From the NCBI GenBank assembly GCA_963831325.1, contig CAWHQA010000004.1, positions 128,069 through 192,068 on the forward strand: a stretch of 64,000 nucleotides of DNA. Reading direction: 5' to 3'. The stretch is from an uncultured Actinomycetes bacterium. Its GTDB lineage: Bacteria; Actinomycetota; UBA4738; HRBIN12. Positions 18,389 to 60,229 of the stretch are shown piece after piece. How positions within the stretch are numbered: position 1 is the first letter of the stretch; each line of letters starts with the position of its first letter. The notes beneath the pieces are model-generated. The model did no database searches, was not told the origin of the DNA, and saw nothing but the letters and a program-made list of their open reading frames with translations. A program made the translations under genes and the position numbers.

Positions 18389-18455
18389 ACATTGCGCTCG
18401 CTCGACCGGAAGCGCCATGTTTGCCGGTCGGCTGAGCCTCGGCTAGCGTCTCGCC

Positions 18456-19133
18456 ATGTTCCCTCGCAAGCTGCTGATCCCGGGAGAAGACGTCGTGCTG
18501 GAGCTGCGACCACATCCTGTGTCGCTGGTTGCGCCCGCGATCGTCGCGATCCTCGCCACGGCGGTCGCCGTCTGGGTCAACGGCCGTGTCGACGGCCTTC
18601 CCGTCTGGATCGCGTGGGCCGCGTGGCTCGCATTGATGCTGGGGTACGTCGTGCCCAAGGTGGTGGCGTGGTGGACCTCGATCTTCGTCGTCTCGACCGA
18701 CCGGGTGATCAGCCGCGAGGGATTCATCGCCAAACGCTCGATGGAGATCCCGCTCGAGCAGGTGAACGACGTCCGGTTCGAGCAGGGCATCTTCGATCGC
18801 ATCGTCGGCGCCGGCACGCTGTTGATCCAGTCGGCGAGCACGAGCGGCACGAACTCGTTCGACAACATCCGCCGGCCGGAGGATGTGCAGCGGACGATCT
18901 TCCATCAGGGGGAGCTCAACCAGCAGCGTTCCGGTCGCCGTTCGATATCCGCACCGGATGTCGACACCGATCCGGACGCCCGCCCCCCGTCTCGCCCCGA
19001 CAGCCCCACCACGTCTCCGCTCTCACCGTCGGTCACGACCGAGCTCGAGCGGATCGCCGACCTTCGCGCTCGTGGGGTCCTGACCGAGGAAGAGTTCCAG
19101 TCGCAGAAGGCCCGCATCCTCGGACGGGGCTGA
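18456..19133 (+). CDS. Membrane protein with bacterial PH (YdbS/YdbT-like) domain and C-terminal SHOCT domain
   Basis: 225-aa ORF. Two N-terminal TM helices are followed by FVVSTDRVISREGFIAKRSMEIPLEQVNDVRFEQGIFDRIVGAGTLLI (bPH_2-like). The tail ELERIADLRARGVLTEEEFQSQKARILG is SHOCT-like. Confidence 0.7.
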   Translation: MFPRKLLIPGEDVVLELRPHPVSLVAPAIVAILATAVAVWVNGRVDGLPVWIAWAAWLALMLGYVVPKVVAWWTSIFVVSTDRVISREGFIAKRSMEIPLEQVNDVRFEQGIFDRIVGAGTLLIQSASTSGTNSFDNIRRPEDVQRTIFHQGELNQQRSGRRSISAPDVDTDPDARPPSRPDSPTTSPLSPSVTTELERIADLRARGVLTEEEFQSQKARILGRG

Positions 19134-19139
19134 CCCGCC

Positions 19140-19487
19140 ATGATCGGCGAGATCGACCACATCTATTACTGGGTGCGCGACATGGACGTCGCCGTATCGT
19201 TCTACCGCGACGTGCTGGAGCTTCCGCTCGTGCGGCGCAACGGCGACGAGTGGGCCGAGCTCGATGCCGGCCCGGTGCGTCTCGCCCTGCACGGGACCGC
19301 CGATCCGACCCCCACGAGCGGCACGGTGGTCTTCCGGGTCGGCGATCTCGACGACGCTCGCATCGCGCTCCGTCAGCGCGGCGCAGATGTCGACGAGCAC
19401 GTCGGGGAGGTCGAGGGGCTCGCGCGTTTCGCGACCGTGAGGGACCCCGACGGCAACCCCGTTCAGTTGATCGAGTACCTGACATGA
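19140..19487 (+). CDS. VOC family protein (glyoxalase/bleomycin-resistance fold)
   Basis: 115-aa ORF reading IDHIYYWVRDMDVAVSFYRDVLELPL...FATVRDPDGNPVQLIEY. Its stop overlaps the next start (ATGA at 19484-19487). Confidence 0.8.
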   Translation: MIGEIDHIYYWVRDMDVAVSFYRDVLELPLVRRNGDEWAELDAGPVRLALHGTADPTPTSGTVVFRVGDLDDARIALRQRGADVDEHVGEVEGLARFATVRDPDGNPVQLIEYLT

Positions 19488-40705: not shown

Positions 40706-43700
40706 GTGCCTGCGCGCAACCCTTCGAGCCGGCACATCGCCGGCGCAGGGCACATCGAGGCGCTACTAGCGGCGTATCGTTCGGCCGTGCAGGTGTGCAG
40801 GAAGTGCGGCGAACGCAATCCCGACCGGGCTCGGTTCTGCATGAGGTGCGGCGCCTCGCTCGACGACACCCAGCGCCCGCTCGAATCGCGGAAGGTAGTC
40901 ACGGTGCTCTTCGCCGACCTCCGTGGATCTACCGCGATCGGGGAGCGCCTCGACCCCGAAGCCGTTCGCCGGGTTCTCACGAGGTTCTACGACGCCGCGC
41001 GCGAGGTGATCGAGCGCCACGGCGGCACAGTGGAGAAGTTCATCGGTGACGCGGTCATGGCTGTCTTCGGAGTGCCGCTCGTGCACGAAGACGATGCCCT
41101 ACGAGGGGTGCGCGCGGCGGCCGAGCTGCAACAAGTCCTCGGGCACATGAACGACGAGCTGCTCCGCGCCAAGTACGGGGTCGGCCTCGAGCTGCGCATC
41201 GGCGTGAACACCGGCGAGGTCGTGGCCGGCGACCCTTCCACGGGCAGCTCGTTCGTGGCCGGCGATGCCGTGAACGTCGGCGCCCGACTCGAGCAGGCGG
41301 CGCCTCCCGGCGAGGTGCTCATCGGTTCGGAGACACAGCAGGCGGTCGGATGGGCCGTCGAGGTGGAAGCCATCGAACCGCTCGACCTGAAGGGGAAGTC
41401 GGAGAAGGTGCCCGCGTATCGGCTCGTGGCGCTGCGCTCACCGGACCAGGTGCCCGAACTGCTTCCCTTGATCGGCCGCGATCGGGAGCGACGCCGGCTC
41501 GATGACGCCCTCGATGCCGCCCTGAGCGCATCGCGCGCCGTGACCGTCACGTTGTCGGGTCCGCCGGGTATCGGCAAGACCCACCTCGCCGAAGACGCTC
41601 TCGAGCGGTGGCACCGAGAGCGCGGCGTTCGAGCCGTCGAGGTGCGATGCGTCGCCGAGGGGGAGGGCAACCCGCTCGGCCCGATCGTGGCGTTGATCCT
41701 CGGGCTCCTGAACGCTCCGGCGGGCGCTCCGGCCGACGATGTCGCCGCGGCGATCCGACTTCGACTGGACGAGCATGAGCGCGCGCCGGTGGTCGCGACG
41801 GTGGTGGCGGGCCTCGTGCGCGGCGGCGGGGCCCGCCCCTCGATGGTCGACGTGGCCTGGGCGGCGGCCGAGCTCGTGTCATCGGTTGCCCGCGAGGCCC
41901 CGGTGGCATTGCTCATCGACGACGCTCACCGGAGCGACGATGATCTCGATGCTGTGCTGCACGAGGTGACGACGCGCCCGGATCGGCCCGTCGTGCTGGT
42001 ACGAACGGTGTTGCCCGAGTTCTCGTCGGGCACGACCGAAACGATCACGCTGGATCCTCTGGGGGACGCCGCATCGCGCGAGCTGCTCCTCTCGGTCATG
42101 GGCGACACGCCGGCCAACGACCGCATCGTCGCTCAGGCCGACGGCAATCCCCTGTTCCTGATCGAGACGGCGCGCATGCTCCGCGAAAGCGGCCCGCAGG
42201 ACGCCTCGGAAGCCCTTCGGGTGCCGACGACGATCAGGGGGTTGCTCGCAGCCCGCATCGAACGACTTCCTGCCGCCGAGGCGCGGCTGCTCGAGACGGC
42301 TTCGGCTATCGGTCGCGTCTTCCCGCTGGAGGGCGCCGCATCGATCGCGCGGATCGGGCTCGATCAGGTGAGCGCCGCAGCGACGTCGCTCGAGGGTCGG
42401 CACCTGTTGACCGAGGTCGGAAGCGTGCACGGCGCCAACACCTCGTTCTCCCATGCCCTCGTGCGTGAGGTCGCCTACCAGAGCATGACGAAAGAACGGC
42501 GCGCCGATCTGCACGAACGTTACGCTGCGTGGCTACAAGCCCGAGGACGGACCCTTCCGTCGGTCGTCGCCCATCATCTAGAGCAGGCATATGTGCTCCG
42601 CAGCAGCTTGGGCGTGCCGGGTCCTGACGAATGGCGGCTCGCAGCCCGGGCAGCGACGGCATTCGCGGCGAGCGGCCTGCACGCCATCGCGGGGGAGTCG
42701 CGTGCAACAGCGATCGCAGCCCTCAGCCGAGCGCGCGCGCTCGTAACCGCGATCCCTGCCGGGGCCGGAGCGTCCGAGGTCGCGCTCGAAGCGCGATCCT
42801 CGTCGGGTCGCTTGGCGGTCGATCTCGGGGACTGGGAGGCCGCGATCGAGCTGCTCGATCTCGAGTCGCTCGGTCCGACCGAGGGGCACGGCGACAGCTA
42901 TCGCCTGGGTCTTGCTCTTACGCAGGCACATCGTGGCCGGGCCGATCACGCCGAGCTGCGGCGTGGCCGCGCGCTGCTCGAGAGCCTGCTCGACACGGCC
43001 CCAACGGCAGACGTGGCCGCCTCGCTCGCCGGCAGTTGGAAGGGCATCGACGACGAGCGCGCCCTCGATCTGTATCGATCTGCGCTCGATCTGGACCCGG
43101 GGGATCCGTATGCGCTTGGAAACGTCGTGGAGTTCGAAGCTGTGAGCAGCGGATCGCTCGACGTGGTCCGCGGCATGGGCACTTTCCTCGATGCCGCAGC
43201 TCGTCGATGTCGCAGCCAGATCGAGCGCGGTGAGAACCAGCCTTGGGCAAGCTTCGATCTGGCCAAGTTCGCCCTGCTCTCAGGCGCACACGACGACGCC
43301 TTCGAAGCGGCCTGTCTGGCCGTCGCGCGCAGTTCCGCCCGATTCATGGTCGAGACATCGCTTCGGTCGCTCGAGCGGTTCTCGGCGATCGACGGCTCGA
43401 TCGCCGGTCTGCAGCGGGTGGTCTCGCTCTACCGCCTCGCGCTTGCCGCCGGCTTCGGTGCTGATGAGGTGGTCCCGTCGTTGCCCTCGACTCCTGACGC
43501 TCGATCGTTCACCCGTCCGGTCGTCATCATCGCCGGAGGATCCTCGCTCGAGTCTGAGGCCCAAGTGCTCCGGTTCGGTCCGCTGGTGCGCGAAGCCATG
43601 CGCGGGGGAGGGGGAACGCTGGTGTCCGGCGCGACCCGTCAAGGCGTGAGTCTGATCGCAGGCGACATCGCGGAAGATGATGCGTTCCGGGCCATCGGAT

Positions 43701-44047
43701 ATCTGCCGGCCTCGATACCGGCTAACGTCGAGGTCGATCACGAGCGGTACGCGGAGCTGCGACGCACGACCGGCGAGGACTTCAGCGTCGCGGAACCGTT
43801 GCAGTACTGGAGCGACGTTGTTGCGAGCGGCATCGACCCTGCCGACGTCCGGGTGCTCGCGATCGGCGGCGGCGGCATCTCGGCCGCGGAGTATCGCATG
43901 GCGTTGGCGCTCGGGGCTCGGGTCGGCGCGATCAGCGGAAGCGGCGGGGCGGCGTCGGAGCTGTTGCGCGACCCGTGGTGGGCGGCGACGACGAGGCTGG
44001 TCGAGCTTGCGCCCGAGGTCGAAGCGATGCGCGAATTCCTCGGGTAG
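40706..44047 (+). CDS. Zn-ribbon + class III nucleotide cyclase + P-loop STAND ATPase + TPR/helical (MAP3K-TRAF-binding/DUF4071-like) region + C-terminal SLOG/LOG-like Rossmann domain
   Basis: Intact 1113-aa ORF; an alternative start at GTG 40787 gives MQVCRKCG.
- Zn ribbon: CRKCGERNPDRARFCMRCG.
- Cyclase: VVTVLFADLRGSTAIGE..KFIGDAVMAVFG..LRIGVNTGE..GDAVNVGARL..GEVLIGS.
- Walker A GPPGIGKT (nt 41558-41581) and Walker B ALLIDDAHRSDDD.
- Helical region with ..LAGSWKGIDDERALDLYRSALDLDPGDPYALGNV.. and ..NQPWASFDLAKFALLSG...
- Last 177 aa (nt 43514-44044): RPVVIIAGGSS...TLVSGATRQGVSLIAGDIA...VLAIGGGGISAAEYRMALALGARVGAISGSGGAA. These are the two Gly-rich motifs of LOG/SLOG-type nucleotide-binding folds. 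Confidence 0.85.
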   Translation: MPARNPSSRHIAGAGHIEALLAAYRSAVQVCRKCGERNPDRARFCMRCGASLDDTQRPLESRKVVTVLFADLRGSTAIGERLDPEAVRRVLTRFYDAAREVIERHGGTVEKFIGDAVMAVFGVPLVHEDDALRGVRAAAELQQVLGHMNDELLRAKYGVGLELRIGVNTGEVVAGDPSTGSSFVAGDAVNVGARLEQAAPPGEVLIGSETQQAVGWAVEVEAIEPLDLKGKSEKVPAYRLVALRSPDQVPELLPLIGRDRERRRLDDALDAALSASRAVTVTLSGPPGIGKTHLAEDALERWHRERGVRAVEVRCVAEGEGNPLGPIVALILGLLNAPAGAPADDVAAAIRLRLDEHERAPVVATVVAGLVRGGGARPSMVDVAWAAAELVSSVAREAPVALLIDDAHRSDDDLDAVLHEVTTRPDRPVVLVRTVLPEFSSGTTETITLDPLGDAASRELLLSVMGDTPANDRIVAQADGNPLFLIETARMLRESGPQDASEALRVPTTIRGLLAARIERLPAAEARLLETASAIGRVFPLEGAASIARIGLDQVSAAATSLEGRHLLTEVGSVHGANTSFSHALVREVAYQSMTKERRADLHERYAAWLQARGRTLPSVVAHHLEQAYVLRSSLGVPGPDEWRLAARAATAFAASGLHAIAGESRATAIAALSRARALVTAIPAGAGASEVALEARSSSGRLAVDLGDWEAAIELLDLESLGPTEGHGDSYRLGLALTQAHRGRADHAELRRGRALLESLLDTAPTADVAASLAGSWKGIDDERALDLYRSALDLDPGDPYALGNVVEFEAVSSGSLDVVRGMGTFLDAAARRCRSQIERGENQPWASFDLAKFALLSGAHDDAFEAACLAVARSSARFMVETSLRSLERFSAIDGSIAGLQRVVSLYRLALAAGFGADEVVPSLPSTPDARSFTRPVVIIAGGSSLESEAQVLRFGPLVREAMRGGGGTLVSGATRQGVSLIAGDIAEDDAFRAIGYLPASIPANVEVDHERYAELRRTTGEDFSVAEPLQYWSDVVASGIDPADVRVLAIGGGGISAAEYRMALALGARVGAISGSGGAASELLRDPWWAATTRLVELAPEVEAMREFLG

Positions 44048-45404: not shown

Positions 45405-48400
45405 TCAGTCCGCGATGGCGAACGTGGCGAGCACGCGATCCACGGCCGGCATGAATCTCTCGAAGCTACGACGGTCGGCTGAGAACGCGTTCACGACGAT
45501 GGTGGAGCCGCCCGTTTCCAGGACGATCCATCGGTCGACTCCCCGGGGCCGAGAGCGTTGACAAAGTCGTCAGTCGTGAGAGGTCCGGTCTCGTGTCGTG
45601 CCGACATCGCCAAAGCGTGACGCATCCTCCACAGGTCGGCCATGGGTTTTCGCGCGGCACGGAGACCACCTCGGTGTCGACGGAAACGCCATCGATGTCC
45701 CCGACGCTCATGGGTGTGGGGGAGGTGGTCTCCAGGTCGGGGTGTCTTGCGAGCCATCTCGGCAGATCTTGTGGAAAGGGCAACAGATTCCTTCGCTCGT
45801 CCCAATCCTTGAATGGGTCGAGCCGCGCCCTGGATTGAGGGAGATGAAGCTCAATCCGCTGAAGGGATCGTCGATCGGCTGAAGCTGCACGAGGTACCAA
45901 ACCCAACATCCTTCTCGTCCGGAGCCAGCTCTGCCGTGACGAACCAATCGTCCTCCAGGTCGAAGGAGAACTCCGGGTACGCGTGCTCGAGTGTGTATGT
46001 GCCGGGCGTTACGACACCGTTCGAGACGCGCTCTCCATCGGCATCGACAGCACGACCGGACCGCTCTTCGAAGCGCCTACGAGTCTCCGCTGCGACTCGA
46101 GCCTCAGGGCCCAAGGAATCGGCCAGCCGTCGCCGGGCGAGCGAGATGAGTTCACCGATGCTGCCACAAGCATCGCAACGATCGATCCTGACGGACGTCT
46201 CGTTGGTGCTCACGACCCTGGAGCCGTCGCCGGTGAAGAATGCAATGCGCCCGGTCCACCGCCTCCCCCGAACGAGGCGAGCAAGTCACCGGAGTTCGGG
46301 TCCCACACCCGGGTGGTACCGCCGTCGTCGGTCGTCGCGACCCTCTGACCGTCAGCATCCCACCACACGCTGTTGACCACTCCGTCATGGCCTGGGAGCC
46401 GCCGCAGCAACTCACCTGACTCCGGATCCCACACGCGTGCGACTCCGTCATCCGAGCGTGTGGCCACACGCTCGCCATCAGGCGAGAAGACCATACCCAG
46501 AACCTCACCACCATCCTCGAGGGAGGCGATTCGACGGCCTGCCCGGGCGTGCCACACGATCGCGGTCGAGGCGACGGTTCCCGCGAACCGGCCGTCTGTA
46601 CTGAGGGCGAGGCCGACTCCACCCGATCGGAAGAGGCGGTCGTCGTGCCACAGTTCTTCGCCCGAGCCCGCGTCCCACATGCGGACCGTTCCATCACCCA
46701 CACCCGATGTGAAGACGAGGCCATCCCCACTGATATGGGCTTCCCAGACGCCTCCGAACTCATTCGGCTCGCCATGCCTGTACATGCCGAGTTGCTTCCC
46801 TGTGCATGCATCCCGCAGGCGAGCCTGCCATCGTCGCTCCACGTCAGGGCGCGATCAGAGCTCGCGAAGAAGTCGGCTGCCATGTACGTCTCGTCGTGGC
46901 CACGGAGCTCCGTCACCAACCTTCCGGAAGCCACGTCCCACACACGGCCCGATTCCGTCCAGTCCCTCCAGAGACGAGCAACCGTCCGTCGGTGCTGAGG
47001 GAGGCGGTGGTCAGCGGTGCGCCGGCATCGAGCCGCATGGTCTCGCGTCCGGTATCGGAATCGACAGGTATGCCGCACCATCCCACGTCGATACCGCGAT
47101 CCGCGGACCCGAGGGGTCGGCGGACGCGAACGAGATCTCGCCCTTGACGACCGTCCGTCCGGTCGACACATCCCAGATCCGAGCCGTCCCGTCACGGCCC
47201 CCGGTCACCACGCTGGCGCCATCGGGAGAGAAGCGGGCATCCAGGACCTCGCCCGCATGACCTCGAAGGGTTGCGATCGACGTGCCGTCGTCCGCGTCCC
47301 AGACCCTCGCCGTTCCATCCGTGGCTCGAGGTGACGACAAGGGCTCCGTCGTTGCTGAACGAAGCGGTACCGATTTCACCCTGGTGTCCTCGGAGGACGG
47401 CGGGCTGCCGTCCAGCCCGGGCGTCCCACACCCTCGCCGTCTCATCCTCCCCGGCGGTGACGACGGAGCGACCGTCGGGGGAGAACGTAGCCTCGACGAT
47501 AGGCGTGGCTCCCGGGTCGAGATCTGCCAGGAGGCGTCCCGATGCTGGCTGCCCAGATCTTCGCAGTCCCATCCTCGCTGGCGGTCGCTATCCGCGATCC
47601 GTCGGGGGAGTAAGAGGCGCTGTACAGGCCGTCGACGTGTCCTTCCAACACGCTGATCGTCCGACCGCTCTTCGCATCCCACAAGCGAGCTGTGTCGTCA
47701 TCACTTGCCGTCACGATGGTCGTGCCTCTAGGATCGAAGTCCACGTCGTAGATCGGCCGGGAATGTCCACGGAACACGCCCACCAACCGGCAGGTCGAAG
47801 GATCCCATGTTCTCGCGATGCCGTCTTCCCCGGCGGTGACGACGCGAGCGCCGGACGCATCGAACGTCGCATCGTGCACCGCCCCACCGCCGTGACGCAA
47901 CGTGCAGACTTCGTCGCCACTGTCTGCATCCCACACGATAGCGGTGCCATCGAAGCTCGCGGTCACGGCCAGCGAGCCGTCGGGGGAGTAGTCGACGGAT
48001 TCGATGATGTCGTCATGTCCAGACAGCACGACCGGTGCTCGCGAGCTCGCCGTGTCCCACAAGCGGGCGGTTCCGTCTGTACTCCCGGTAAGGATCCTCC
48101 GCCGACTGGGCTGTATCGAACGGAGACGATCGCAGCCTCGTGTCCGCGCAGGGTTCGCCGAACCCTCGAGGTCTCCAACGATCGCCGGAGCGCATCGACT
48201 GCCTCGGCGGTCTGGGCACTCGCCATGGCTTCGGTCGCTAGCACGAGCGACCGTTCGGGGTCGACGGCGAGCTGACCCATGGCCGAGGCGGCGAGTTCCC
48301 TCGATCGTGAGTGGGCCGCTTGCTCTCGCGCCTCGCCCCGTTGCACGAGCGCGAACGCGCTGAGCGCGAGCGAGACGACGAGTGCCGCGGCCACCGCGGC

Positions 48401-49036
48401 GATGGCGCCGCGCTGACGCCGGGTGGCGGCCGACCTGGATGCCTGCACGTACCGTGCCTGCGCGGGGGTGGCCCTCGGCTCCGACCCCGATGCCACGACC
48501 GCCTCGGCTTCGGCGATCTCCGCGCCCCGCAGCAACAGGGCCTTCGTGTCGTCCTTCCGTTCCCACTCGCCGGCCTGCACCCCGAGCTTCGTGTGTGCTC
48601 GTACGTGCTCGAGGTCGGTCCGAAGTGCCTCCACCGCTCGGTCCACCGCGCCGCCGAGGGCTCCGTCGGTGGCATCGATCCAGTTGAGCGCCGCGAGCGG
48701 CCCCGGCACCGATGCGGCATCGGTGGATCGCACCATGACCGGCACGATCCGCTTACCCGCCCCCCGGGCGAGCTCGAGCTCCTCCGCACAGACCTTCGAG
48801 TTCGCGAGGGAGGGGGAGACGACGACCAGGTAACCGTCGGAGGACTCGATCGCCGATCCGATCTCGGCCATCCACTCGGCCGAGGGTGGGATGTCCTCGA
48901 GGTCCACCCACGCCTTCAGCCCTCGTGCGTCGAGGCCCGCCACGATTGCTACCACGGCCTCCCGGTCGGCGCGGGAGTAGGAGACGAACACGTCGTGGGG
49001 CTGGGTGGACTCGCTCGACTCGGCAGCGCTCAACAC
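45405..49036 (-). CDS. TIR + single TM helix + WD40 beta-propeller array + C-terminal domain, paralog 1 (heavily frame-broken)
   Basis: GTG 49036 overlaps the stop of paralog 2 (GTGTTGA). The TIR part is HDVFVSYSRADREAVVAIVAGLDARGLKAWVDLEDIPPSAEWM..SKVCAEELELA... The linker is HVRAHTKLGVQAGEWERKDDTKALLLRG. The TM helix is AIAAVAAALVVSLALSAFALV. WD40 blades (..TGSTDGTARLWD.., ..TASFDGTAIVWD.., ..TAGEDGIARTWD.., etc.) are spread over ORFs 47963.., 47442.., 47192.., 47011.., 46210... After ..IDRCDACGSIGELISLARRRL comes a ~250-aa C-terminal domain ending ..AVDRVLATFAIAD* (stop at 45405). Confidence 0.8.
48330..49036 (-). repeat. Conserved ~0.7-kb 5' module (TIR + linker + TM), copy in paralog 1
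   Basis: Long runs are identical or near-identical in DNA and protein to 51154..51882 and 54548..55275. Similarity stops right after the TM helix (..ALVQRG). Confidence 0.8.
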
Positions 49037-51882
49037 GTGGCTCGATACTGCGCGAAGGGGATGAGGTCTTTCCACTCGGCCTCGGTGAGGTTCCTGCCGG
49101 CCGCCGAGCACAAGTGCTCGGCGAGGAGTTCGACGTCGTCGGACCACGCGACCGACGGGAGCACCAAGATGCTTCCGTCGTCGCTGGCCGCCACCAAGCT
49201 CGTTCCCTCGGGATCGAACGCGAGTGAGTTCACCCAATCGCGTTGCTCTGGCAGTCGGTCCCCGATGACCTCGCCGGTGCTCGCCTCGAACAGCGCGACT
49301 TCGCCCGCGACCGTGCCTGCGGCGAGCACGTTTCCATCGGGGCTGAACGCCACGCTCTGCACACCGTCGCCCAGTGTGAGCTCGAATTCCGGCTCGCGGC
49401 TCTCGACGCTCAGCACGACCACGTCGCCACGGAAGTTGCCGATCGCCAGTCGTTCGCCGCTCGGATCGAAGGCCATGGCGTACACCGCACTCCGCTGCTT
49501 CAGCACGGGTTCGCCCACGACACTTCCATCGGAGGGGTCGCGGAACACCACCGTGCCGTTGAGGCTGCTCGTGGCCAGGATCGAGCCATCGGGGCTGAAG
49601 GCGAGCGCGTAGATGAATCCCTTCTGACCAGGCACCAGCTCGCCGATCGGTTCGCCGCTCTCGGCGTTCCAGAGCTGCACATCGCCTTCGAGGCTGCCGG
49701 TCGCGACGGTCGAGCCGTCGGGGCTTATCGCCACGCCCGTGAGGAACGGCCCAGGCGCCTGAGTGGGCTCGAGGATCTCGAGCGCCAGCGAGTTCCATCG
49801 GCGCAGATCGCTTTGGAATGCGGCTGGGTCGAGCGCGGTACCGACCAATGTCTCGCCGTCGGGGGAGTAGGCCACGCCGTACGCGCCCTGTTCGTCGAAC
49901 GTTGCGATCGCCTCGAGCGTCCCGGTATCCCAGACGGTCACCCTTCCGGTCGTGACACCACCCCCGTCGAGGTACTCGATGGGATAGGTCGAGGCGAAAC
50001 TCTCGCCGTCGGGGTGGAAGGTCACCACGTTGACCGGCCCGCCGCCGCCCGCGAGCCGGTGCTTCACATCCCACACCACGACGGTGCTGTCGGAGCTCCC
50101 TGAGATCACCGAGCCGCCGTCGGGCGTGAACGCTAGGCCGTTGACCCAATCGGTGTGAGCGCGCAGCGGCTGGCTCACCTGCTCCCCTGTGTCGACGTCC
50201 CAGAGGCGCACCGTGGTATCCGCGCTTCCCGACGCAAGCGTTCGCCCGTCAGGGGAGAACGCGACGTCGTACGCGGCGTCATCGTGGCCTTGCAACTGCC
50301 AGAGCCGTTCTCCTGTCCCCAGATCGAATACGAGGACCTCGCCCGTCGCGGCCTGAGAGCGACGCGCGAGCGTGGCGACGGCCACCGACCGTCCGTCGGG
50401 GCTGACGTCGAGTCCCCACGCTTCCTCGGCCGACAGCTCGAACGTCGAAACCTTCTGGCCGGTCTTCAGGTCCCACGACGACATCAGCCCGCCTTCGGTG
50501 CTCGCGATGATGTCGTCGTTGTTGCCCGCGAACGCGAGTCCCCATACGGGCTGACGACCCACGCGGATCGGTGCGCGCATGATCGGGGTTCCGGAACCAG
50601 CGTTCCACGCGTGCACCGTTCCCTCACTGGTGCCGCCGAGAACGATCCGTCCGTCGAGTGAGAACGCGACGGATGTCACGTCACCGTCGTCGACGGGAAG
50701 CGGTTCACCGATCGCCTCGCCGGTAGTCGGATCCCACAGGTCCACGCTCCCGTCAGTCCCACCGGAGGCCAGCGTGCCGTCGGCGGCAAACGCCATGGAG
50801 AACACCGAACGGTCGTCGGCATCGATAGATTCCCCGGTCGGTTTACCGCTCTCGGCGGACCAGATCGAGATCTGGCCGTCGTTGTCGCTCGCGGCGATGA
50901 TCGACCCATCAGGTGCAACCGCCGCCGAGTTCACGCCGTTCGGCCCTCGCAGCGTGTGCTCGATCCAGATCGAACGCTGCGCAGCGACGTGCAATGCATC
51001 GAGTGCCTCGGGCGTTGGCGCGGTGCGGTAGGCCTCGAGGGCGAGCAGCATGCCAACGTCGAGCCGATCGTCCATGCTCAGGAGCGCCTCGGAGGCGAGT
51101 GCCCGTGAGTTGGCGACCTGGGTCTGCGACTCCGCACGGTCACGTTGCTCGACCGCCTCGCCCCGCTGCACCAGCGCGAACGCGCTGAGCGCGAGCGAAA
51201 CGACGAGCGCCGCGGCCACCGCTCCGATCGCAGAGCGCTGTCGCCGGGTGGCGGCCGCCCTGGACGCCTGCACGTACCGTGCCTGGGCCGGGGTGGCCCT
51301 CGGCTCCGAACCTGAGGCCACGACCGCTTCGGCCTCGACGATCTCCCCGCCCCGCAGCAACAGGGCCTTCGTGTCGTCCTTTCGCTCCCACTCGGCGGCT
51401 CGCACCCCGAGCTTGGTGTGTGCACGAACGTGGTCCAGGTCGGTCCGTAGCGCCTCCACCGCTCGGTCCAACGCACCGTCGAGGGCTCCGTCGGTGGCAT
51501 CGATCCAGTTGAGCGCCGCGAGCGCCCCGGGCACTGAGCCCGGATCGGTGGGGCGCACCATGACCGGCACGATCCGCTTGCCGGCCCTCCGAGCGAGTTC
51601 GAGCTCTTCGCCACAGACCTCGGAGCTCACGAGGGACGGGGAGACCGCGACCAGATAGCCGTCAGAGGCCTCTATCGCGGCTCGGATCTCGGCCATCCAT
51701 TCCGCCGAGGGCGGGATGTCCTCCAGATCTACCCACGCCTTGAGGCTCTTTGCCTCGAGACCCGCCACCAGCGCCACCACTGCCTCCCGGTCTGTGCGGG
51801 AGTAGGAAACGAACACGTCATGGCCCTGGGCAGGCTCGCTCGATCTGGCCTGCGCGGGCACACGCGGCTCGGTTTCGGTCAC
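49030..51882 (-). CDS. TIR + single TM helix + ~14-blade WD40 array, paralog 2 (intact)
   Basis: Intact 950-aa ORF. SD GGGAGG precedes GTG 51882. The TIR domain is about aa 21-140 (HDVFVSYSRTDREAVVALVAGLEAKSLKAWVDLEDIPPSAEWMAEIRAAIEASDGYLVAVSPSLVSSEVCGEELELARRAGKRIVPVMV). The TM helix is aa 218-238 (AIGAVAAALVVSLALSAFALV), preceded by RRQR. About 14 blades follow, of the type ..SPDGxxLAxGSxDxTVxLWD... There is no P-loop between the TIR domain and the repeats. Confidence 0.9.
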   Translation of the reverse strand: MTETEPRVPAQARSSEPAQGHDVFVSYSRTDREAVVALVAGLEAKSLKAWVDLEDIPPSAEWMAEIRAAIEASDGYLVAVSPSLVSSEVCGEELELARRAGKRIVPVMVRPTDPGSVPGALAALNWIDATDGALDGALDRAVEALRTDLDHVRAHTKLGVRAAEWERKDDTKALLLRGGEIVEAEAVVASGSEPRATPAQARYVQASRAAATRRQRSAIGAVAAALVVSLALSAFALVQRGEAVEQRDRAESQTQVANSRALASEALLSMDDRLDVGMLLALEAYRTAPTPEALDALHVAAQRSIWIEHTLRGPNGVNSAAVAPDGSIIAASDNDGQISIWSAESGKPTGESIDADDRSVFSMAFAADGTLASGGTDGSVDLWDPTTGEAIGEPLPVDDGDVTSVAFSLDGRIVLGGTSEGTVHAWNAGSGTPIMRAPIRVGRQPVWGLAFAGNNDDIIASTEGGLMSSWDLKTGQKVSTFELSAEEAWGLDVSPDGRSVAVATLARRSQAATGEVLVFDLGTGERLWQLQGHDDAAYDVAFSPDGRTLASGSADTTVRLWDVDTGEQVSQPLRAHTDWVNGLAFTPDGGSVISGSSDSTVVVWDVKHRLAGGGGPVNVVTFHPDGESFASTYPIEYLDGGGVTTGRVTVWDTGTLEAIATFDEQGAYGVAYSPDGETLVGTALDPAAFQSDLRRWNSLALEILEPTQAPGPFLTGVAISPDGSTVATGSLEGDVQLWNAESGEPIGELVPGQKGFIYALAFSPDGSILATSSLNGTVVFRDPSDGSVVGEPVLKQRSAVYAMAFDPSGERLAIGNFRGDVVVLSVESREPEFELTLGDGVQSVAFSPDGNVLAAGTVAGEVALFEASTGEVIGDRLPEQRDWVNSLAFDPEGTSLVAASDDGSILVLPSVAWSDDVELLAEHLCSAAGRNLTEAEWKDLIPFAQYRATC
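51154..51882 (-). repeat. Conserved ~0.7-kb 5' module (TIR + linker + TM), copy in paralog 2
   Basis: See 48330..49036. The similarity to paralog 3 extends about 25 nt upstream of the start codon (CTAGGCTCC.GG.CGGGAGGTTCCTCGTG). Confidence 0.8.
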
Positions 51883-52017
51883 GAGGAACCTCCCGCCGGG
51901 AGCCTAGTTCATGACCTAGGTCTGGCGATAGCGTGCTTGAGGGGACTCAGGAAGTCTCGAAAGCGACAGGATCGGCGAGTCCAAGTCGGCATCCCCCCGG
52001 TATGCGACGACCCCGGA

Positions 52018-55000
52018 TCAGGGGGTCCAGCCCACACGCTCCCACTGGTGGGCGGCGAGCGCCTGGACCCAGCCCTCGTTCGAGAGCTCGTCCCCGCAGC
52101 CGGGCAGCTCGATCGACTCGGGGGCGACGAAACGGACGGCCGAGGGACCGTCTGGCACTAGCCGTCCGGAGAACGAGTACCCGACGCACTTCGGGGGACC
52201 CGCGCTCGTGTGATGAGCGTGACCCTTTCCCCCGATCGCTCGATCGAGCCGCTCCAGTCGTCCAGGTCGCCGTTCGACGACCGCACGTGATATCGCCAGG
52301 TGTCACCCTCGAAGTACCAGGTGTAGACGCCCGCAAGCCATCGATGGTCGTTCGGTCCGAACGGTGGGCTCGGGAAATCCTCACGCTCGAGCTCGACGCG
52401 GAAGGCGCCCTCGGGAACCGGTGACTCCGGAAGGGCCGACGGTTCGGACGAGGCCGGACTAGCACGCGTGTCGGGGCACCGATCGACGTGGAGGTACTGC
52501 CGGCACTCGACCTCCGTGAGGTCGCGCGAGAGCCTCGAACGGGCGAGGGCGACGAGCTCGTCAACTTCGAGGGTGAACACGCGGAGCGTGCCATCTTCGC
52601 TCGCCGTGGCGAGCTCGGATCCATCGGGACTGAAGGCGATGCCCCAGATCGGTGCCGTGTGTCCTCGGAGCGCCAGGAGCTCCTCGCCGGTCTCTGCGTC
52701 CCAGACGTAGGCGATCCCGTCACCGCCTCCGGTCGCGAGCTGCGAGCCGTCAGGGCTGAACGCCACCGACTGGACGAACCCGACTCCCCCCATGGAGGCG
52801 AGCTCTCGACCCGAGGCGCTCAGTACAGTTGCGCCGTCTCCGCCGGCCGTGGCGATCCTCGAGCCATCCGGGCTGAAGGTGACCGAGCTCGCGAGCCCTC
52901 CACCCGACTGCACACGCGTGAGCTCCTCTCCCGATGATGTATCCCACACATAGAGCGTGGCCAGGCCGCTCAGGCCCGCGAGCAGATCTCCGTGCGGCGC
53001 GAACGCCACATCCACCATGCTGTCTCGCGCGTTGCTTGGCTCGCCGAGCGTATGCATGGTCCGGCCAGTAGCTGCGTCGAACACGGCAGCGGTACCGAGC
53101 TGCCCGGCAACGGCCACCCGAGTACCATCCCCCGATAACGCCATGGCGTTCGGCCAGTTCTCGTCGTCGCCATGGGTCGGGAAATGACTCACCACCGACC
53201 CATCGTCCGTCTGCACGATCTGGACGTCATCCTTCGGCGTGAGGAACGCCATGGTGCTGCCCCCGGGACCGAACGTCCCGTTGCGGAACCCGTCTAGGTA
53301 GCCGCGGACGAGCTCTCCCGTTTCGATGTCCCACAACCAGCCGCGCCCATACCACTCCGTCGTGAGCAGCGAGTTCCCGTCTGGGTGATACGCGAGATCG
53401 TTGAGGCCGGCGGGCTCCTCGATGCCGAGACGCTCGGCCGTCCCCGCCCGTGAGACGTCCCAGACCCGGGCTGTCCCGTCGGTCCCGCCGGTGAGGAGCT
53501 GGGTCCCATCGGGGCTGAACGACACGAGCGCGATCAGCCCCCGGTGTCCCGGGAGTGCGAGCACCTCCTCGCCGGTCTCGGCGTCGAAGACGCGGGCCAC
53601 ACCATCGCTACCCCCTGTGGCGACCAGGTCGCCGTCTGAGCTCCAGTCGACACCGATCACGTTCCCGGGACTCAGGATCCGCACCTCGGGCACGCGATCG
53701 AACCCGCCCTCGATACGAAGGTCCCAAACATTCACGCCTCCTTCGTCCGAGGTCACGAGCCGGGTCCCATCGGGGCTGAACGACATCTCCTGTGGGCAGA
53801 CGGCATCCAGCGACAGCACCTCCCGACCGGTACGCGCGTCGAGGATCACGGTCCGGTCGCGCGCGTTGGCGATCCTGGTGCCGTCAGGGCTCATGAGGGG
53901 TGTCGTGCACATCCCCCAGGGCTGATCGACTCGGAGGGTCTCGGCGCCGCTGTCGACATCGACCACCCGCACGACGCCACCCACGACGTTCCCGTCGGGA
54001 CCCGTGGGCAGCTCCCCGATCACGACCCGTTCACCGTCGTGCGCGAAGCGAGCTCCGGCGAGGATCCCGTCTTCAGCCTGCGGGATCACGGCCTGCACAT
54101 CGCCGGTGGCGACGTCCCAGATGCGGACACCGTCCTGTTCCTCATCGGAGACGCTCACGATCTGGGAGGCGTCGGGGCTGAACGCCACGTAGTTGAGGTC
54201 CGAGGTGTGACCCGAGAGTCGCTGCACCTCCGCACCCGTCTGCGCGTCCCACAGGATGGCGTCGACCCCCTCCTTTCCGCCGGCCGTTCCGCCCGTGAGC
54301 AGGAGCCGCCCGTCGGGACTCCACGCCACGTTCCCGGTGGAGGGATCGACGATGGTCAGGAGCTCACGGTCGGCCTCCACCGCATCATGCAGCGCCTGTT
54401 CCGCCTCGGGGAGGACGGCCTCATCGTCCCGCGTCGCGTCCACCGCTGCCAGAGCCAGGAGGATGCTGAGCTGCGGATCTACCGAGAGGTTCGCGGTCGA
54501 GGCGGCCGCGAGCTCTCGAGCCGTCGCCACGCGCGTCTGGCGTTCGGCCCGACCACGCTGGACGAGTGCGATCGCGCTCAAAGCCAGCGAGACGACGAGC
54601 GCCGCAGCCACCGCCCCGATCGCAGCACGTTGACGCCGGGTGGCGGCCGAGCGCGACGCCTGCACGAACCGAGCCTGGGCAGGGGTCGCCCTCGGATCCG
54701 AACCCGAGGCCACGACCGCTTCGGCCTCGGCGATTTCCCCTCCCCGCAGCAACAGCGCCTTCGTCTCGTCCTTCCGTTCCCACTCGGTGGCCCGCACCCC
54801 GAGCTTCGTGTGTGCCCGGACGTGGTCGAGGTCGGTCCGAAGGGCCTCCACGACCTGGTCCACCCGGTGGTCGAGCGCGCCGTCGGTGGCATCGATCCAG
54901 TTGAGCGCCGCCAGGGTCGTGGGCACCGAGCCTGGATCGGTGGGGCGCACCATGACCGGCACGATCCGCTTACCGGCCTCGCGCGCGAGTTCGAGCTCTT

Positions 55001-55275
55001 CGGCACAGACCTGCGAGCTCGCGAGGGAAGGGGAGACCACCACCAGGTAGCCGTCGGAGGCCTCGATCGCGGCTCTGAATCTCGGCCATCCACTCGGCCG
55101 ATGGCGGGATGTCCTCGAGATCCACCCACGCCTTGAGTCCCCGTGCGTCGAGTCCCGCGACCAGCGCCACCACGACCTCCCGGTCCGCGCGGGAGTAGGA
55201 GACGAACACGTCGTGGGGCTGGGCAGGCTCGCTCGACTCGGCCTGCGCGGGCATGCGCGGCTCGGTCTCGGTCAC
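52018..55275 (-). CDS. TIR + single TM helix + WD40 array + distinct C-terminal domain, paralog 3 (two frame breaks)
   Basis: GTG 55275 starts MTETEPRMPAQAESSEPAQPHDVFVSYSRADREVVVALVAGLDARGLKAWVDLEDIPPSAEWMAEI. A 1-nt insertion near 55080 shifts the frame into ORF 52158..55043 (..VVSPSLASSQVCAEELELAREAGKRIVPVMV.., TM AIGAVAAALVVSLALSAIALV, WD40 blades, ..HVDRCPD..). A second shift near 52190 extends the C-terminus to ..CVGYSFSGRLVPDGPSAVRFVAPESIELPGCGDELSNEGWVQALAAHQWERVGWTP* (stop at 52018). Confidence 0.85.
54548..55275 (-). repeat. Conserved ~0.7-kb 5' module (TIR + linker + TM), copy in paralog 3
   Basis: See 48330..49036. Confidence 0.8.
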
Positions 55276-55485
55276 GAGGAACCTCCCGGCCGGAGCCTAG
55301 CCCACGGAAATGTCCTGCACGAACGCCAGGTGGGGCCGCGCTCGGCGTCCGCGGCCGAGTGAGTCCTCTAGTCCCCTCGAATTCGGTGGCTCCTTGGTCA
55401 GCTGTTGACTGATCAGGATGCCATCGCCCTGGAGGCCTTGGCTCATGAGACCATTCGTAGGCTTCACCCGCCCGCGCGGGGCGCC

Positions 55486-55552: not shown

Positions 55553-56463
55553 ATGAGGCGGACATGGATCGGGGTCGCTGCTCTGACCGCGCTGGTTCTG
55601 GTAGCGCAACCGGCGGCGGCGACCTTCCCCGGGGGCAACGGCAAGATCGCCTACTTCGATTACACCGGTGAACCACTCCACATCTACTCGATCGATCCGG
55701 ACGGTTCAGGACGGATACAGCTCACCTCAGGCTCGATGGCTAATCAGTACCCGGCGTGGTCGGCCGACGGCGCCACGATCGCGTATGTCCGCTCACGCGG
55801 GATCGAGACGGGCCGTCATTCCATCCTCACGATGAACGCTGACGGCACAGGCGACACCGTCCTGTTCCGCGCGAAAGACAACCGGAAGGAGATCCTCGAT
55901 CCGGCGTGGTCCCCGGACGGCACCCAGATCGTGTTCTGCGCCGAAGGGCGTCAACCACCTGCGCTCTTCGTCATCGACGCCGACGGGACCGGCCTGACGA
56001 AGCTCACGCGCGGACGACACTTCGACTGCCACCCGTCGTGGTCCCCGGACGGCAGCACGATCGCGTTCGCGACGATCAGGGGACGGCACTTCTCGATCGC
56101 GACCATGGCCACCGACGGGTCGAACAGGACGCTGTTGGTCCGCCGTGGGTCGAATGACGTGCCCGATTGGTCGCCTGACGGATCCCAGCTGGTGTTCTTC
56201 CGGGTGCACGGGCGCCGCAGCGACGTCTTCATCATCGATGCGGACGGCACCGGGCGAACCCAGTGACCCATTCGACGAAACGGTGGGAATGGACACCGAC
56301 AGTCTCGCCCGATGGCCAGCGGATCGCGTTCGGACGAGGACAGGGCCGGACGATCTTGCACGATGCCGACATCTACTCGATGGCGACGGACGGCACCGAC
56401 GTTCAGCGGCTCACGAGCACGGATCGTTTCGACGAGATCTGGCTCACCTGGCAACCCACGTAG
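55553..56463 (+). CDS. Secreted TolB-like / PD40 beta-propeller repeat protein (one frame break near 56260)
   Basis: The signal peptide is MRRTWIGVAALTALVLVAQPAAA. Then comes TFPGGNGKIAYF. Blades include WSADGATIAY, WSPDGTQIVF, WSPDGSTIAF and WSPDGSQLVF. It continues in ORF 56263..56463 (VSPDGQRIAF...DIYSMATDGTDVQRLT..). It is a paralog of 32255..33196. Confidence 0.8.
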
Positions 56464-56499: not shown

Positions 56500-59400
56500 T
56501 CATCGCCCGATCTCGATGGTTCCGATGATGGGTCGGAGTGCCGCGAGGGTCCGCTCGAGTCCCTCGCGCGACTCCGCGCGGATCATCACGAGCACGATGC
56601 CCTCCTCGGTCTCGATCTCGATCCATCGCTGTTCGTCGCCACGTGAGACGCCGACGAACAGGTCGTGGGCAAGTGGACCCATTCGGTTCGTGACCGTGAT
56701 CGGCATGATCGGCAGGCAGTCGGTGCACATCGGGGGCAGGTTCTGCTGCTGTACCGAAGCGACGCGAAGATCGATAGCCGTTCCAGCAGCTCCGCCGAGC
56801 GTGGTGTCTTCGACCCGGCGTAGATCCAGGTGCGGATGATCGTCGACCCACGCGGCGAGGTCGTCGGGGAATGGGACGATGTTGCGACGCTCGTCCCATT
56901 CCTTCCATCCGTCGAAGACGCGCCCGGGTTCGAGGTGGACGAAGAAGATGTTCACGGCCGCATCGTCGGCCTTCGAGAGCAGGACCGAGGTCGCAGTCTG
57001 TGCTTCGCCTTCGTTGGCCCAGCCGATATCGGTCGTGGCGATCCATCCTTCGGGAACGCTGAAGGACAGGCTTGGAGCGAACCGGTGGCCGAGTAGGCGC
57101 CGGCTGGGAGCGGTCCGTCGCTGTATGTCCTCGCCATGCACGTCGACCAGTCCTGCCGGCCTCGATGCATCGTCGGTGGCAGGCTCCGAAGCTGTTCCCA
57201 GGAACGCGCTCTCTTCGGCGGCTGTCAGACCCCGCGTGGTCCGCTCTTCCGCGAGCTGAAGGAGTTCCTCCACGGGCACGCAGGCGTCGCAGCGATCGAC
57301 CCGAACGCCGTTCGCATCGTTGGTCACGATGGTGCGATCTCCAGCGACGAAGAAGGCCATCGTGGCGCCGTAGGCGGCATCGAAGGAGGCGACCAGCTCA
57401 CCCGACACAGGGTTCCAGATGCGTGTCGAGCCCCCGTCCTCGGCGGCGACCACCCATCGGCCGTCGTGACTGAACCTGGCATCCACCGAGCTCTCTTCGC
57501 TCTGCATCGTCGAGAGGACGCGACCCGTCCGCGCGTCCCATACCCGCACCGGTCCGTCATCGCTGCGGGTGACGACCATCCGCCCGTCCGGGGAGAAGCG
57601 TGCGTTCTGGATCAGGTCGGGGGCATCCAACGAGGCGACGACGCTGCCGTCATCGACATCGACGATCCTGGTCTGGCCGGACACGATCGCGAGCAGGTCC
57701 GCGTCCGGGCTGAAGTTGACCGACATCCCAACGGTCCCACTCCAGAGATCCTCGATCGACCACCGCTCTTCCGCGGAAGCCGCATCCCACATCCGGACGA
57801 CGCCATCGCCGCTGCCGGCGGTCACGACGTTGAGAGCATCCGCGCTGAGGGTTGCATCCCAGATGCCGCCACTCTCGGCGTTGCCGTGTTCGAAGGACGC
57901 CGTTTCCCTGCCGGTGACGGGATCCCAGAGCCTCGCCGTGCCGTCGTCGGAGAACGTGAGCGCGCGATCTCCGACCGGGACCGGGACGGGGACGGTGAAT
58001 CCCGGTCGATGACCGACCAGTTCCTCGATCTGCTCGCCGGACTCGATATCCCACACGTGTGCGACGCCGTCGAACCCTGCGGACGTCACGAGTGACCCGT
58101 CCGGCGAGACGGCGGCACCGATCTGGAGTTGACCGGCATCGACGTTGATGAGTTCGTCCCCGACTCGGCATCGATCACGATGACCCGACCCCCCATCGTG
58201 ACCACGGCGACCTGGGTGCCATCCGGGCTCTGCGTCATCCAGAAGACCTTCGTATCGAGCACGGTTCGCCCGGAGCTCGGTTCCCAGATCCGAGTCGTCC
58301 CGTCCTGCCCACCCGAGGCAACGAACGTTCCGTCGGGAGAGAAGCGCGCGTCAAGGACGGCGCCGTCGTGGCCGCTGGAGCACGGCGAGGGGGGAGCCGC
58401 TCTCTGCATCCCAGACACGCACGGTGCCGTCCTCGCCGGTGGTCACGACCTGGGATCCGTCGAGGCTGAACGCGATCGTGTTGAGGCCACCTTGATGCCC
58501 GCGAAGGACGAGCGTACGACCGGTCCCTCCGTTGACGATCCGAGCGGTTCCATCTTCGCTGGCGACACCGATCGATCTGCCGTCGGGGCTGAACAGGGCG
58601 TCGACGACAGCTCCGTTCATGCCGCCGACCTCTCGCAGCAACCTTCCCGACCGGGCGTCCCAGAGCTTCACGGTCGCATCCTCGCCAGCGGTCAGGATCC
58701 GCCGGGCATCGGGCGAGAAGCGGGAGACGTAGAGACCATCGGTGTGACCCTTCAGCGTATGGGCGAGGTCCTCACGGCGTAGGTCCCAAACCTTCGCGGT
58801 GTCGTCGTCGCTCGCTGAGGCGGCCAACGAACCGTCGGATCTTACGCTCACGTCATAGACGGGGCGATCGTGCGTGCCAAGGGTCGTGAGGCGCTCGCCG
58901 GTCTCGGCGTCCCACGCGAGCACGTTCCCATCACCGTCTCCGGTGATGACCGTCTCGCCATCGGGAGTCAGCTCGGCATCGAAGATGCCACCTCCGGTAC
59001 CGAGGAACGTGGCCACTTCCCTCCCCGAGTCCGTCTCCCAGATCTTGGCCGTCCCGTCGTAGCTGGTGGTGAGGACGCGGCTGCCATCCGAGCTGAAGCT
59101 TGCCGCGGCGATGAGATCCGTGTGTCCTGCGAGGACGAGCGGGTCCGACCGGATGCGAGATCCTGTATCCGAGCCGTGCCGTCGTAGCTGGCGGTGAGCA
59201 ATCGATCGCCGTCGGGCGAGTACTGGACGACCGATACAGGACCGTCGTGTTCGGTGAATGAGGAACGCACCCGCGACTCATCGATCGATTGCCGCATGGA
59301 GTCGACGGCTTCGGGGGTCTGTTCCACCTTCAGCGCTTCGGAGGCGAGCAGGAGCGAAAGTTCAGGATCGGTTTCTAATTGGTCGATGGCTGCCGACGCC

Positions 59401-60229
59401 AGCTCCCGAGAGCGGGATTCAGCGGCTCGTGCGACCGCCTCCTGCTCGTTCCTCACCGCTGAGCCACGTTGGATCCACGCTGCCAGACCGAGGGTCGCAG
59501 CCACGAGGGCGACGCAGACCGCGATCGCGATACCGGTACGTTGGCGACGACCCGATGCCTTGCGGGAAGCGAGTACGAATCGGGTCTGCAGTTCCGTCGG
59601 CCTCGGTTCCCGATCGGCTGAGGCGAGCGTCGCTTCCGCCCCCTCGAGGTCTCGACCTCGAAGCAGCAACGAGCCATCCTCCCCCTTCGCCTTCCATTCC
59701 GACGCCTTCACGGTGAGGCGGGTGTGAGCTTTGACGTGGTCGAGGTCGGTCTCGAGGGCTTCAACGATGTCATCGCAGGCGCTTTCGAGCGAAGTCGAGT
59801 CGATCGCATCGATCCAGTTGAGTTCGGCCAGGAACGTCGGGACGGACTCCGGATCGGTTCGTCGGATCGCCACGGGGACGATCCGTTTGCCTGCCGAACG
59901 GGCGTGCTCCAACTCCTGGGCGCAGACCTTCGAATGAGCGAGATCTGGGAGAGACCACGACCAGGTACCCATTAGCTGAGAGCGATCGCGGCTTCGATGG
60001 TGGCCATCCAGGCAGCGGATGGCGGGATGTCCTCAAGGTCGACCCAGGCTCGCTTCCCGCGGGCGGCGAGGCCTTCAACTATCCGTCGAACGACCTCCCG
60101 ATCGGCCCGGGAATAGGAGATGAAGACATCATGGGTGGCGGTCCGTGGGTCGTTCGCACCCTCAGACGGAGCGATGGGCCGAATGTCCTTCGCCAACGGT
60201 CCCGCTTTCTCCCGCTCTACCCATCGCAC
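56500..60229 (-). CDS. TIR + single TM helix + WD40 array + C-terminal domain, paralog 4 (divergent; heavily frame-broken)
   Basis: ORFs 59972..60229 (..THDVFISYSRADREVVRRIVEGLAARGKRAWVDLEDIPPSAAWMATIEAAI), 58968..59972 (..SKVCAQELEHARSAGKRIVPVAI.., HVKAHTRLTVKASEWKAKGEDGSLLLRG, TM IAIAVCVALVAATLGLAAWI), 58351..59016, 58086..58418 and 56500..58089 (WD40 blades) form one gene. After ..VDRCDACVPVEELLQLAEE comes a C-terminal domain homologous to that of paralog 1. Confidence 0.8.

Follow-up and report, generated by a model that had tools for sequence, protein, structure and literature searches.

A constant signalling module that is joined to varied sensors and kept alike by recombination is a hallmark of eukaryotic immune-receptor families. 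Toll-like and interleukin-1 (IL-1) receptors, including the hetero-dimerising TLR1/2/6, carry a repeat sensor outside the cell, one transmembrane (TM) helix and a TIR domain inside, and the Toll-like receptors form a germline family in which several conserved sensor types are set on one signalling domain; both traits have a parallel in the locus described here, the first of them a predicted one. In Actinobacteria, receptor kinases of the PknB type are N-in single-pass proteins with a cytoplasmic enzyme head and an exported repeat sensor, an arrangement that we predict for this locus as well. In this study we analysed a stretch of 64,000 nucleotides (nt) from an uncultured Actinomycetes bacterium (assembly GCA_963831325.1, contig CAWHQA010000004.1, positions 128,069 to 192,068), called the window in the following. 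It lies on contig C4 of a genome of 2.9 Mb (38 contigs, 68% G+C, 76% complete), and its minus strand bears four tandem genes (P1-P4), each encoding a TIR / single-TM / WD40 protein. We show that these genes are mosaics of similar 5' heads (TIR, linker and TM helix) and unlike 3' tails (WD40 propeller), that heads and tails differ in divergence even at silent sites, that their trees conflict and that the heads of P1-P3 bear the signal of an internal breakpoint. As the best explanation of the whole we propose, and consider likely, a single-pass TIR-WD40 receptor-like array whose head has been recombined among paralogs with much older tails.

The heads of P1, P2 and P3 are homologous modules of ~0.72 kb. 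Pairwise blastn comparisons gave 85.0%, 85.2% and 86.0% identity over 727, 690 and 748 nt, and codon alignment gave 84-86% identity at the nucleotide and 85-88% at the amino-acid (aa) level, i.e. about one base in seven differs. A preliminary description of the window had called these heads near-identical, with identity at most positions by eye over ~240 codons. The head peptides that it quoted for the three paralogs are correct and the shared modules stand and are no chance likeness, but the wording was too strong for sequences that differ to this degree. Downstream of the heads blastn leaves just a few WD40 matches of 45-84 nt between paralogs, and apart from these the tails cannot be aligned at the DNA level. 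In windows of 30 codons, nucleotide identity is 0.80-0.92 until P2 codon ~240 (0.80-0.88 at codons 211-240), 0.68-0.75 at codons 226-255 and 0.46-0.57 from codon 241. Hence the drop is complete in ~15 codons, directly past the residues ..ALVQRG that close the hydrophobic helix, which is where the preliminary description had placed it; the clear difference of WD40 arrays and C-termini noted there was borne out too. The parts of the array are as follows, all on the minus strand.

45405-49036, minus strand: P1 gene, with ~14-15 single-base insertions or deletions (indels) in the tail
48335-49036, minus strand: P1 head of 234 codons, TIR with helical linker and TM helix (Pfam TIR_2, E=4.6e-25, 88.9 bits)
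45405-48334, minus strand: P1 tail of the '1220-type', with juxtamembrane helices, WD40 double propeller, CxxC motif and a C-terminal domain of ~250 aa
49030-51882, minus strand: P2 gene of 950 aa, the sole uninterrupted frame of the four paralogs
51160-51882, minus strand: P2 head of 241 codons, with TIR at residues 23-132, invariant Glu93, conserved linker at 134-215, RRQR motif and TM helix at 218-238
51169-51231, minus strand: P2 TM helix, residues 218-238, placed by hydropathy, flanking charges and the AlphaFold2 (AF2) model; paralog homology stops just 3' of it
49030-51159, minus strand: P2 tail of the '950-type', with juxtamembrane helices, 14-blade double propeller and a C-terminal helical cap with two Cys; its open reading frame (ORF) is intact
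51883-51920, minus strand: conserved P2 leader of ~38 nt (TAGGCT and CTCCC..GGGAGG)
52158-55275, minus strand: P3 gene, with one extra T inside the TIR domain
54552-55275, minus strand: P3 head, its frame shifted within the TIR domain by the extra T at 55078-55079 (GAGAT[T]C)
52158-54551, minus strand: P3 tail, WD40 double propeller with a distinct C-terminal extension, an orphan tail type
55276-55313, minus strand: P3 leader, the same element as the P2 leader
~56500-60190, minus strand: P4 gene, with a 1220-type tail that includes the C-terminal domain and at least 3-5 frame changes as assembled
59454-60187, minus strand: P4 head, of clade B, with 54% aa identity to the P2 head

The fourth paralog, P4, with its 54%-identical head, had been passed over in the preliminary finding. 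Between P3 and P4, on the opposite strand, lies a gene for a PD40 (TolB-like) propeller (55553-56266, plus strand; Pfam PD40, E=1e-21).

The contrast between heads and tails is seen at silent sites as well. Four-fold degenerate sites were scored at conserved residues, with a random expectation of 0.37 from base composition; among P1, P2 and P3 the identity at these sites is 0.66-0.71 in the heads and 0.36 in the tails. Estimated by the method of Nei and Gojobori (NG86), the synonymous divergence (dS) of the P1-P3 heads is 0.45-0.48, with a ratio of nonsynonymous to synonymous divergence (dN/dS) of 0.17-0.20, while the tails are saturated at dS 1.3-1.5. The three paralogs of locus L015 show the same contrast of head and tail dS. 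Divergence along the genes is therefore not uniform, even at silent sites; the uniform divergence that the preliminary description had named as its refutation did not appear. More remote heads drop to 0.43-0.54 four-fold identity, and two ortholog pairs are more diverged in the head than in the tail (L015_996/L016_992, dS 0.44 against 0.26; window P1, W_P1, and L014_1221, third-position differences of 0.316 against 0.214), which excludes a plateau set by constraint on silent sites. The tails are old and stable and not fast-evolving: across assemblies, orthologous tails share 86-89% aa identity at a dN/dS of 0.17-0.24, similar to the heads. For the P3 tail no close ortholog was found among the sequences retrieved. 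We also rejected sensor diversification driven by repeats, because Tandem Repeats Finder (TRF) detected no tandem DNA repeats and no internally repeated sensor DNA over 45.3-60.3 kb. With at least six old tail types, each slowly evolving and free of such repeats, the rapid diversification of sensors that had been suggested for this locus did not hold up.

A search with the P2 head returned 93 proteins, nearly all of which consist of TIR, conserved linker, RRQR-type basic motif, TM helix, QR(G/S/N) and WD40 repeats, and the conflict between head and tail trees was assessed across ~45 family members. The head tree has three clades: A with P1-P3 of the window (W_P1-3) and P0002-13, B with window P4 (W_P4) and P0036/40-46, and C with P0014-37. 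The tail tree has strongly supported types of its own (1220-type with the C-terminal domain, 950-type, 99x-type, 939/960-type, 928-type and 945/934-type), and each of these types includes members with A, B and C heads. In approximately unbiased (AU) tests, a tree with the 1220-type genes as one clade is rejected on head data (p = 1e-76), and a tree that unites the clade-A genes is rejected on tail data (p = 1.5e-9). Arrays mostly carry heads of one clade (A,A,A,B in the window and A,A,A in L015), with mixed exceptions (C,A in L003). A separate actinobacterial array from another species, G041, repeats the pattern of the window, with heads that are 82-84% identical at the nucleotide level and tails that cannot be aligned. 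The ~250 residues past the CxxC motif are common to P1, P4 and all 1220-type relatives (in the window 56503-57300 and 45405-46150); this region has no Pfam match and marks a tail type that is found with all three head clades.

A signal of recombination is also seen within the heads themselves. In the three window heads the maximum chi-squared (max-chi2) statistic of 21.7 places a breakpoint at nt ~350 (permutation p = 1e-4): over nt 1-350 the P1 head sides with P3 (27 vs 7 sites), over nt 350-723 it sides with P2 (38 vs 15 sites). A likely course of events is that the 0.72-kb head together with a leader of ~38 nt would form one recombination unit. Homologous recombination between paralogs, through either gene conversion or unequal crossing-over inside the heads, would have homogenised or exchanged this unit. 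Such homogenisation or exchange would account for the coalescence of the P1-P3 heads at dS ~0.5. The propeller tails would be much older paralog types, long since unalignable as DNA and each conserved across genomes, and exchange would stop at the membrane exit because nucleotide homology ends there. After homogenisation the heads would have diverged independently, with occasional further exchange.

Several observations weigh against this reading. A max-chi2 signal from three sequences could in part reflect region-specific rate shifts. Among ten clade-A heads a GENECONV-like scan of run lengths was significant in 1 of 45 pairs, and a PHI-like test (pairwise homoplasy index) was weak, with p = 0.03 at k=5 only. 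The head tree of clade A is star-like at dS ~0.5, with all pairs 83-89% identical at the nucleotide level, and within this clade the window heads resemble one another no more than they resemble heads that sit on orthologous genes in other genomes; at this depth, textbook ongoing concerted evolution is accordingly not seen. In three Chloroflexota loci the tandem paralogs do not have similar heads, so homogenisation is specific to lineages and no rule for the family. P1, P3 and P4 are frameshifted as assembled, and on these data gene conversion or unequal crossing-over cannot be told from one-off swaps of heads or tails. Since the GENECONV-like and PHI-like tests are mostly negative, we rejected recent or ongoing conversion and conclude that most of the recombination within and around the head dates from the split of these genomes (dS ~0.5) or earlier and that it shows no visible sign of continuing. 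The earlier suggestion of gene conversion or head duplication with swapped sensors is thus upheld by the silent-site contrast, the tree conflict and the breakpoint signal in the heads, but not as a recent event.

The similarity of P2 and P3 also reaches upstream of the start codon. They are alike over ~38 nt 5' of the GTG (GGGCTAGGCTCC..CGGGAGGTTCCTC GTG), a stretch that includes the Shine-Dalgarno sequence and had been put at ~25 nt before. A leader of this type stands upstream of all close (clade-A) relatives in five other assemblies, P1 being the exception. It contains a TANNNT-type hexamer, TAGGCT, that resembles a -10 box, and a Shine-Dalgarno sequence within a small CTCCC/GGGAGG hairpin. 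From its motifs it is a putative promoter and Shine-Dalgarno element, and it may be a translational control element, as the hairpin would sequester the Shine-Dalgarno sequence. P1 has no leader of its own; its GTG overlaps the P2 stop codon (GTGTTGA, 49030-49036). In the independent Illumina contig L001 (2902-3020) the P2 ortholog ends in an identical overlap, which there leads into a 117-nt stub of a P1-type head and then a TIR-hydrolase gene on the opposite strand. Hence the coupling of P2 stop and P1 start is ancestral, and the P1-type gene was deleted in the lineage of L001. The tail-ortholog of P1, L014_1221, carries a leader and seven first codons that are missing from W_P1, which we count as a sign of recombination.

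How else could similar heads have come to stand on dissimilar tails? If the paralogs were of uniform age, the heads might be alike through stronger purifying selection with no recombination at all. In support of this, the heads have a low dN/dS (0.13-0.20) and many residues that do not vary across phyla, and the star-like head tree, in which ~85% identity turns up in two lineages, might point to a plateau. We regard this explanation as very improbable, since the four-fold identity of the heads stands far above the random level of the tails, remote heads fall towards random and hence show no plateau, orthologous tails evolve about as slowly as heads, both AU tests document the conflict between head and tail trees, and the non-coding leader is shared too. 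Another possibility would be shuffling in one burst, in which one head and its leader came to be copied onto, or fused with, several existing sensors, or tails were swapped in. This would fit the star-like heads at dS ~0.5 without within-genome excess and with almost no recent tracts, the sharpness of both module boundaries, which are common to all copies, and the presence of the same head on dCache and TPR tails. However, the three window heads show the signal of an internal breakpoint, the ortholog pairs with heads more diverged than tails point to later exchanges, and reassortment in three head clades as well as in a separate array argues for a recurrent process, so that a single burst seems rather improbable to us.

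Two further explanations concern the integrity of the locus. P1 is colinear with its intact ortholog L014_1221 over 3.6 kb at 87.4% nucleotide identity, and its ~14-15 indels are each exactly 1 nt long, many of them beside clustered mismatches; P2 matches its ortholog L001_950 (86.3% of nucleotides, 86% of amino acids) without any indel. It might be that P2 alone is functional and that P1, P3 and P4, like the TIR-hydrolase gene next to them, are genuine pseudogenes, in which case the shared heads would be relics with no present role. Such decay would agree with the uneven frameshifts, with none in P2 (2.85 kb) and in the neighbouring cyclase gene at 40706-44047 (3.2 kb), ~14 in P1, one in P3 and at least three in P4; as P2 and the cyclase gene are free of indels, consensus errors would need a very uneven spread. 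A member of the same genus, G022, has head fragments only, and L001 retains just its stub of the P1-type gene. On the other hand, the P1 indels are without exception single bases, the frame-corrected P1 has no internal stop, and its substitutions relative to the intact ortholog are biased to third positions (0.09/0.065/0.216 by codon position). Other window genes, for example the methylmalonyl-CoA mutase-like ORF at 5895-7412, are also frame-garbled by eye, and related metagenome-assembled genomes (MAGs) come from long-read assemblies ('contig_' names) in which some genes are split. We therefore consider decay doubtful, although it deserves to be taken seriously; the frame breaks look like long-read consensus error in strain-variable stretches, and the frameshifts of P1, P3 and P4 are probably such errors. 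In the ORF translations the cyclase-like stretches 8747-10696 and 18392-21599 appear garbled by eye as well. The gene rpoB, sought as a yardstick of the indel rate, was not found in the 76%-complete MAG. In either case the mosaic analysis holds, because it rests on substitutions. That the repeated heads are collapsed or chimeric joins of the assembly might be suspected given that the MAG is fragmented into 38 contigs, 76% complete and marked by indel-type errors, but it is hardly credible: the copies differ at 15% of bases and their longest exact shared run is 37-45 nt, too little for a collapse or mis-join, the P2-P1 junction and intact P1 and P2 orthologs are present in independent Illumina contigs, and equivalent three-gene arrays with similar heads exist in L015 and G041. 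Taken together, recombination of the head over old sensor types is well supported, and we hold it to be quite likely.

The protein architecture agrees with a receptor-like role. The TIR domain of P2 matches Pfam TIR_2 (PF13676) with 84.5 bits (E = 1e-23; curated cut-off 28), and the closest solved TIR domains are those of Hydra TRR-2 (Toll-receptor-related 2), which is nearest by sequence, Cat1 and TIR-SAVED. Glu93 (SEVCGEELELA; C-x-x-E-L motif) does not vary in two alignments, one of 61 and one of 17 sequences, and its counterpart in Cat1 lies in the DEL, a catalytic-type Glu motif. The TIR head is a probable NAD+-cleaving enzyme. In the AF2 model, with a predicted local distance difference test score (pLDDT) of 90.5, the TIR domain (residues 23-130) is followed by helices at 134-189 within a conserved linker of ~80 residues, a continuous helix at 198-269 that carries the TM segment 218-238, two more helices, a 14-blade double propeller at 307-909 and a C-terminal helical cap. 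Foldseek matches of the propeller include 2ymu, Apaf-1 and other double propellers. Nearly all of 84 family proteins have a 19-residue hydrophobic window after a basic RRQR-type motif, with a mean hydropathy of ~1.9-3.1 (2.2-3.1 in WD40-tailed members). The 15 residues before the TM segment contain 4.5 Lys+Arg and 0.2 Asp+Glu (net charge +4.3), those after it 2.7 and 2.0 (net charge +0.7). Of the 84 proteins, 73 have an even Cys count in the tail, while a single Cys is usual in the head. The 215-residue N-terminal domain is not preceded by a signal peptide, and in P0038 the same TIR-linker-TM head is fused to a dCache_1 sensor. From the charge bias, the even Cys number of the tails, the lack of a signal peptide and the fusion in P0038 we infer an N-in / C-out topology, in which the proteins would be single-pass receptors with a cytoplasmic TIR domain, one TM helix and an extracytoplasmic WD40 double propeller. 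What speaks against this topology is that WD40 propellers are unusual as exported domains. TPR tails are found on the same N-terminal TIR-linker-TM head in P0079 and P0083, and P0092 combines CHASE2 with a C-terminal TIR domain in reversed domain order (weak match, E = 2e-5, 33% identity).

If this topology is correct, a ligand that binds to the outer propeller would alter the oligomeric state, the rigid helix would pass this change across the membrane, and the TIR domains would cluster and cleave NAD+. It is plausible that binding outside is coupled in this manner to TIR clustering and NAD+ cleavage inside, and a common head may let different sensors feed one output or co-assemble. One could go further and picture a germline repertoire of Toll-like surface receptors, in which at least six propeller types, each for a different external cue (phage, competitor or kin), share one interchangeable, recombination-matched head that enables co-assembly or a single NAD+-derived output; in this full form the idea is speculative and we think it unlikely. 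The evolutionary result is solid; the functional reading is a plausible one. The work yields a map of the family: a single type of head that splits into three clades, tails of at least six types and an exact swap point where the chain leaves the membrane. With this map, domain-swap experiments are straightforward.

Across species-representative genomes the conserved head turned up at 444 sites, and family-wide counts refer to the best 80 loci. These belong to several phyla, including Actinomycetota, Chloroflexota, Cyanobacteria, Acidobacteriota and Proteobacteria. No array was present in 24 species representatives of the same genus, where the sole match consists of short, broken head fragments in G022 (C6:91314-91678), probably the remnant of a lost array. 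The array is accessory and its distribution patchy. The orthologs for comparison were drawn from metagenome contigs, and they show old, conserved tails. Beside the TIR-WD40 genes of the window lies a gene with zinc-ribbon, adenylate-guanylate cyclase, AAA_16 and TPR domains (40706-44047, plus strand), and a cyclase-AAA_16 gene accompanies TIR-WD40 genes in all six close loci (the window, L001, L003, L014, L015 and L016). Regulators or transporters that bind cyclic nucleoside monophosphates (cNMP) are also nearby in several of these six. Family-wide no partner gene is conserved, the cyclase gene being present in only 2 of the best 80 loci, and Pfam finds no SLOG domain in its product; a functional link to this cyclase-STAND neighbour is hence a local lead only and was not adopted.

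The closest described systems include the enzymatic TIR proteins of bacterial defence. Thoeris ThsB, TIR-SAVED, Cat1 and TIR-STAND/Avs-like proteins have a TIR_2-type domain with the invariant Glu (C-x-x-E-L), as here, and bacterial TIR defence proteins share the patchy, accessory distribution. The present family differs in having no recurrent partner effector, no nucleoside triphosphatase (NTPase), a membrane anchor and a predicted external sensor. PADLOC and NCBIfam contain no system model or curated family name for TIR-TM-WD40 proteins and gave only weak domain-level matches (ThsB, SAVED-TIR and Thoeris type III ThcB4; for ThsB and ThcB4 E = 2e-4 and 4e-4, far below cut-off). Assignment to Thoeris, i.e. 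ThsB with a ThsA-type effector, was rejected, as the ThsB match is below cut-off and no partner is conserved across the family. An STAND or NLR-like protein (Avs, bNACHT or Apaf-1-like) was rejected as well, as Pfam finds no NTPase and the AF2 model has only helices and the TM segment between TIR domain and propeller. A full-text literature search, which included the exact term 'TIR-WD40', returned no description of the TIR-TM-WD40 architecture or of head/tail reassortment, and the passages available from Kaur et al. 2020, 2021 and from the 2025 Thoeris survey do not mention this architecture.

Likeness to Apaf-1/STAND-WD40 proteins and the fungal HNWD family (HET-E type) lies in tandem WD40 propellers of the 7+7 type, in an effector head set on repeat sensors and in a history shaped by recombination. 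The proteins described here, however, have no NB-ARC or NACHT module, and while concerted evolution and hypervariation affect the WD40 repeats of HNWD genes, the homogenised part is here the head. PknB-type receptor kinases, with the membrane arrangement outlined at the beginning, have a kinase output and a PASTA sensor in place of TIR and WD40. Compared with Toll-like receptors, the TIR domain here is N-terminal, the sensor is a WD40 double propeller and not made of leucine-rich repeats (LRR) or immunoglobulin (Ig) domains, the Glu is of catalytic type and there is no adaptor pathway. As the family has neither an LRR ectodomain nor a C-terminal TIR domain, its likeness to Toll-like receptors would be one of topology only; to the enzymatic bacterial TIR domains it would be alike in chemistry, and it is a member of neither family. 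At the level of gene evolution, the pattern appears to mirror that of immune-receptor families, in a bacterial family so far uncharacterised. If the predicted topology is true, these proteins would be bacterial TIR receptors that sense the outside of the cell, which would bear on the origin of Toll-like signalling.

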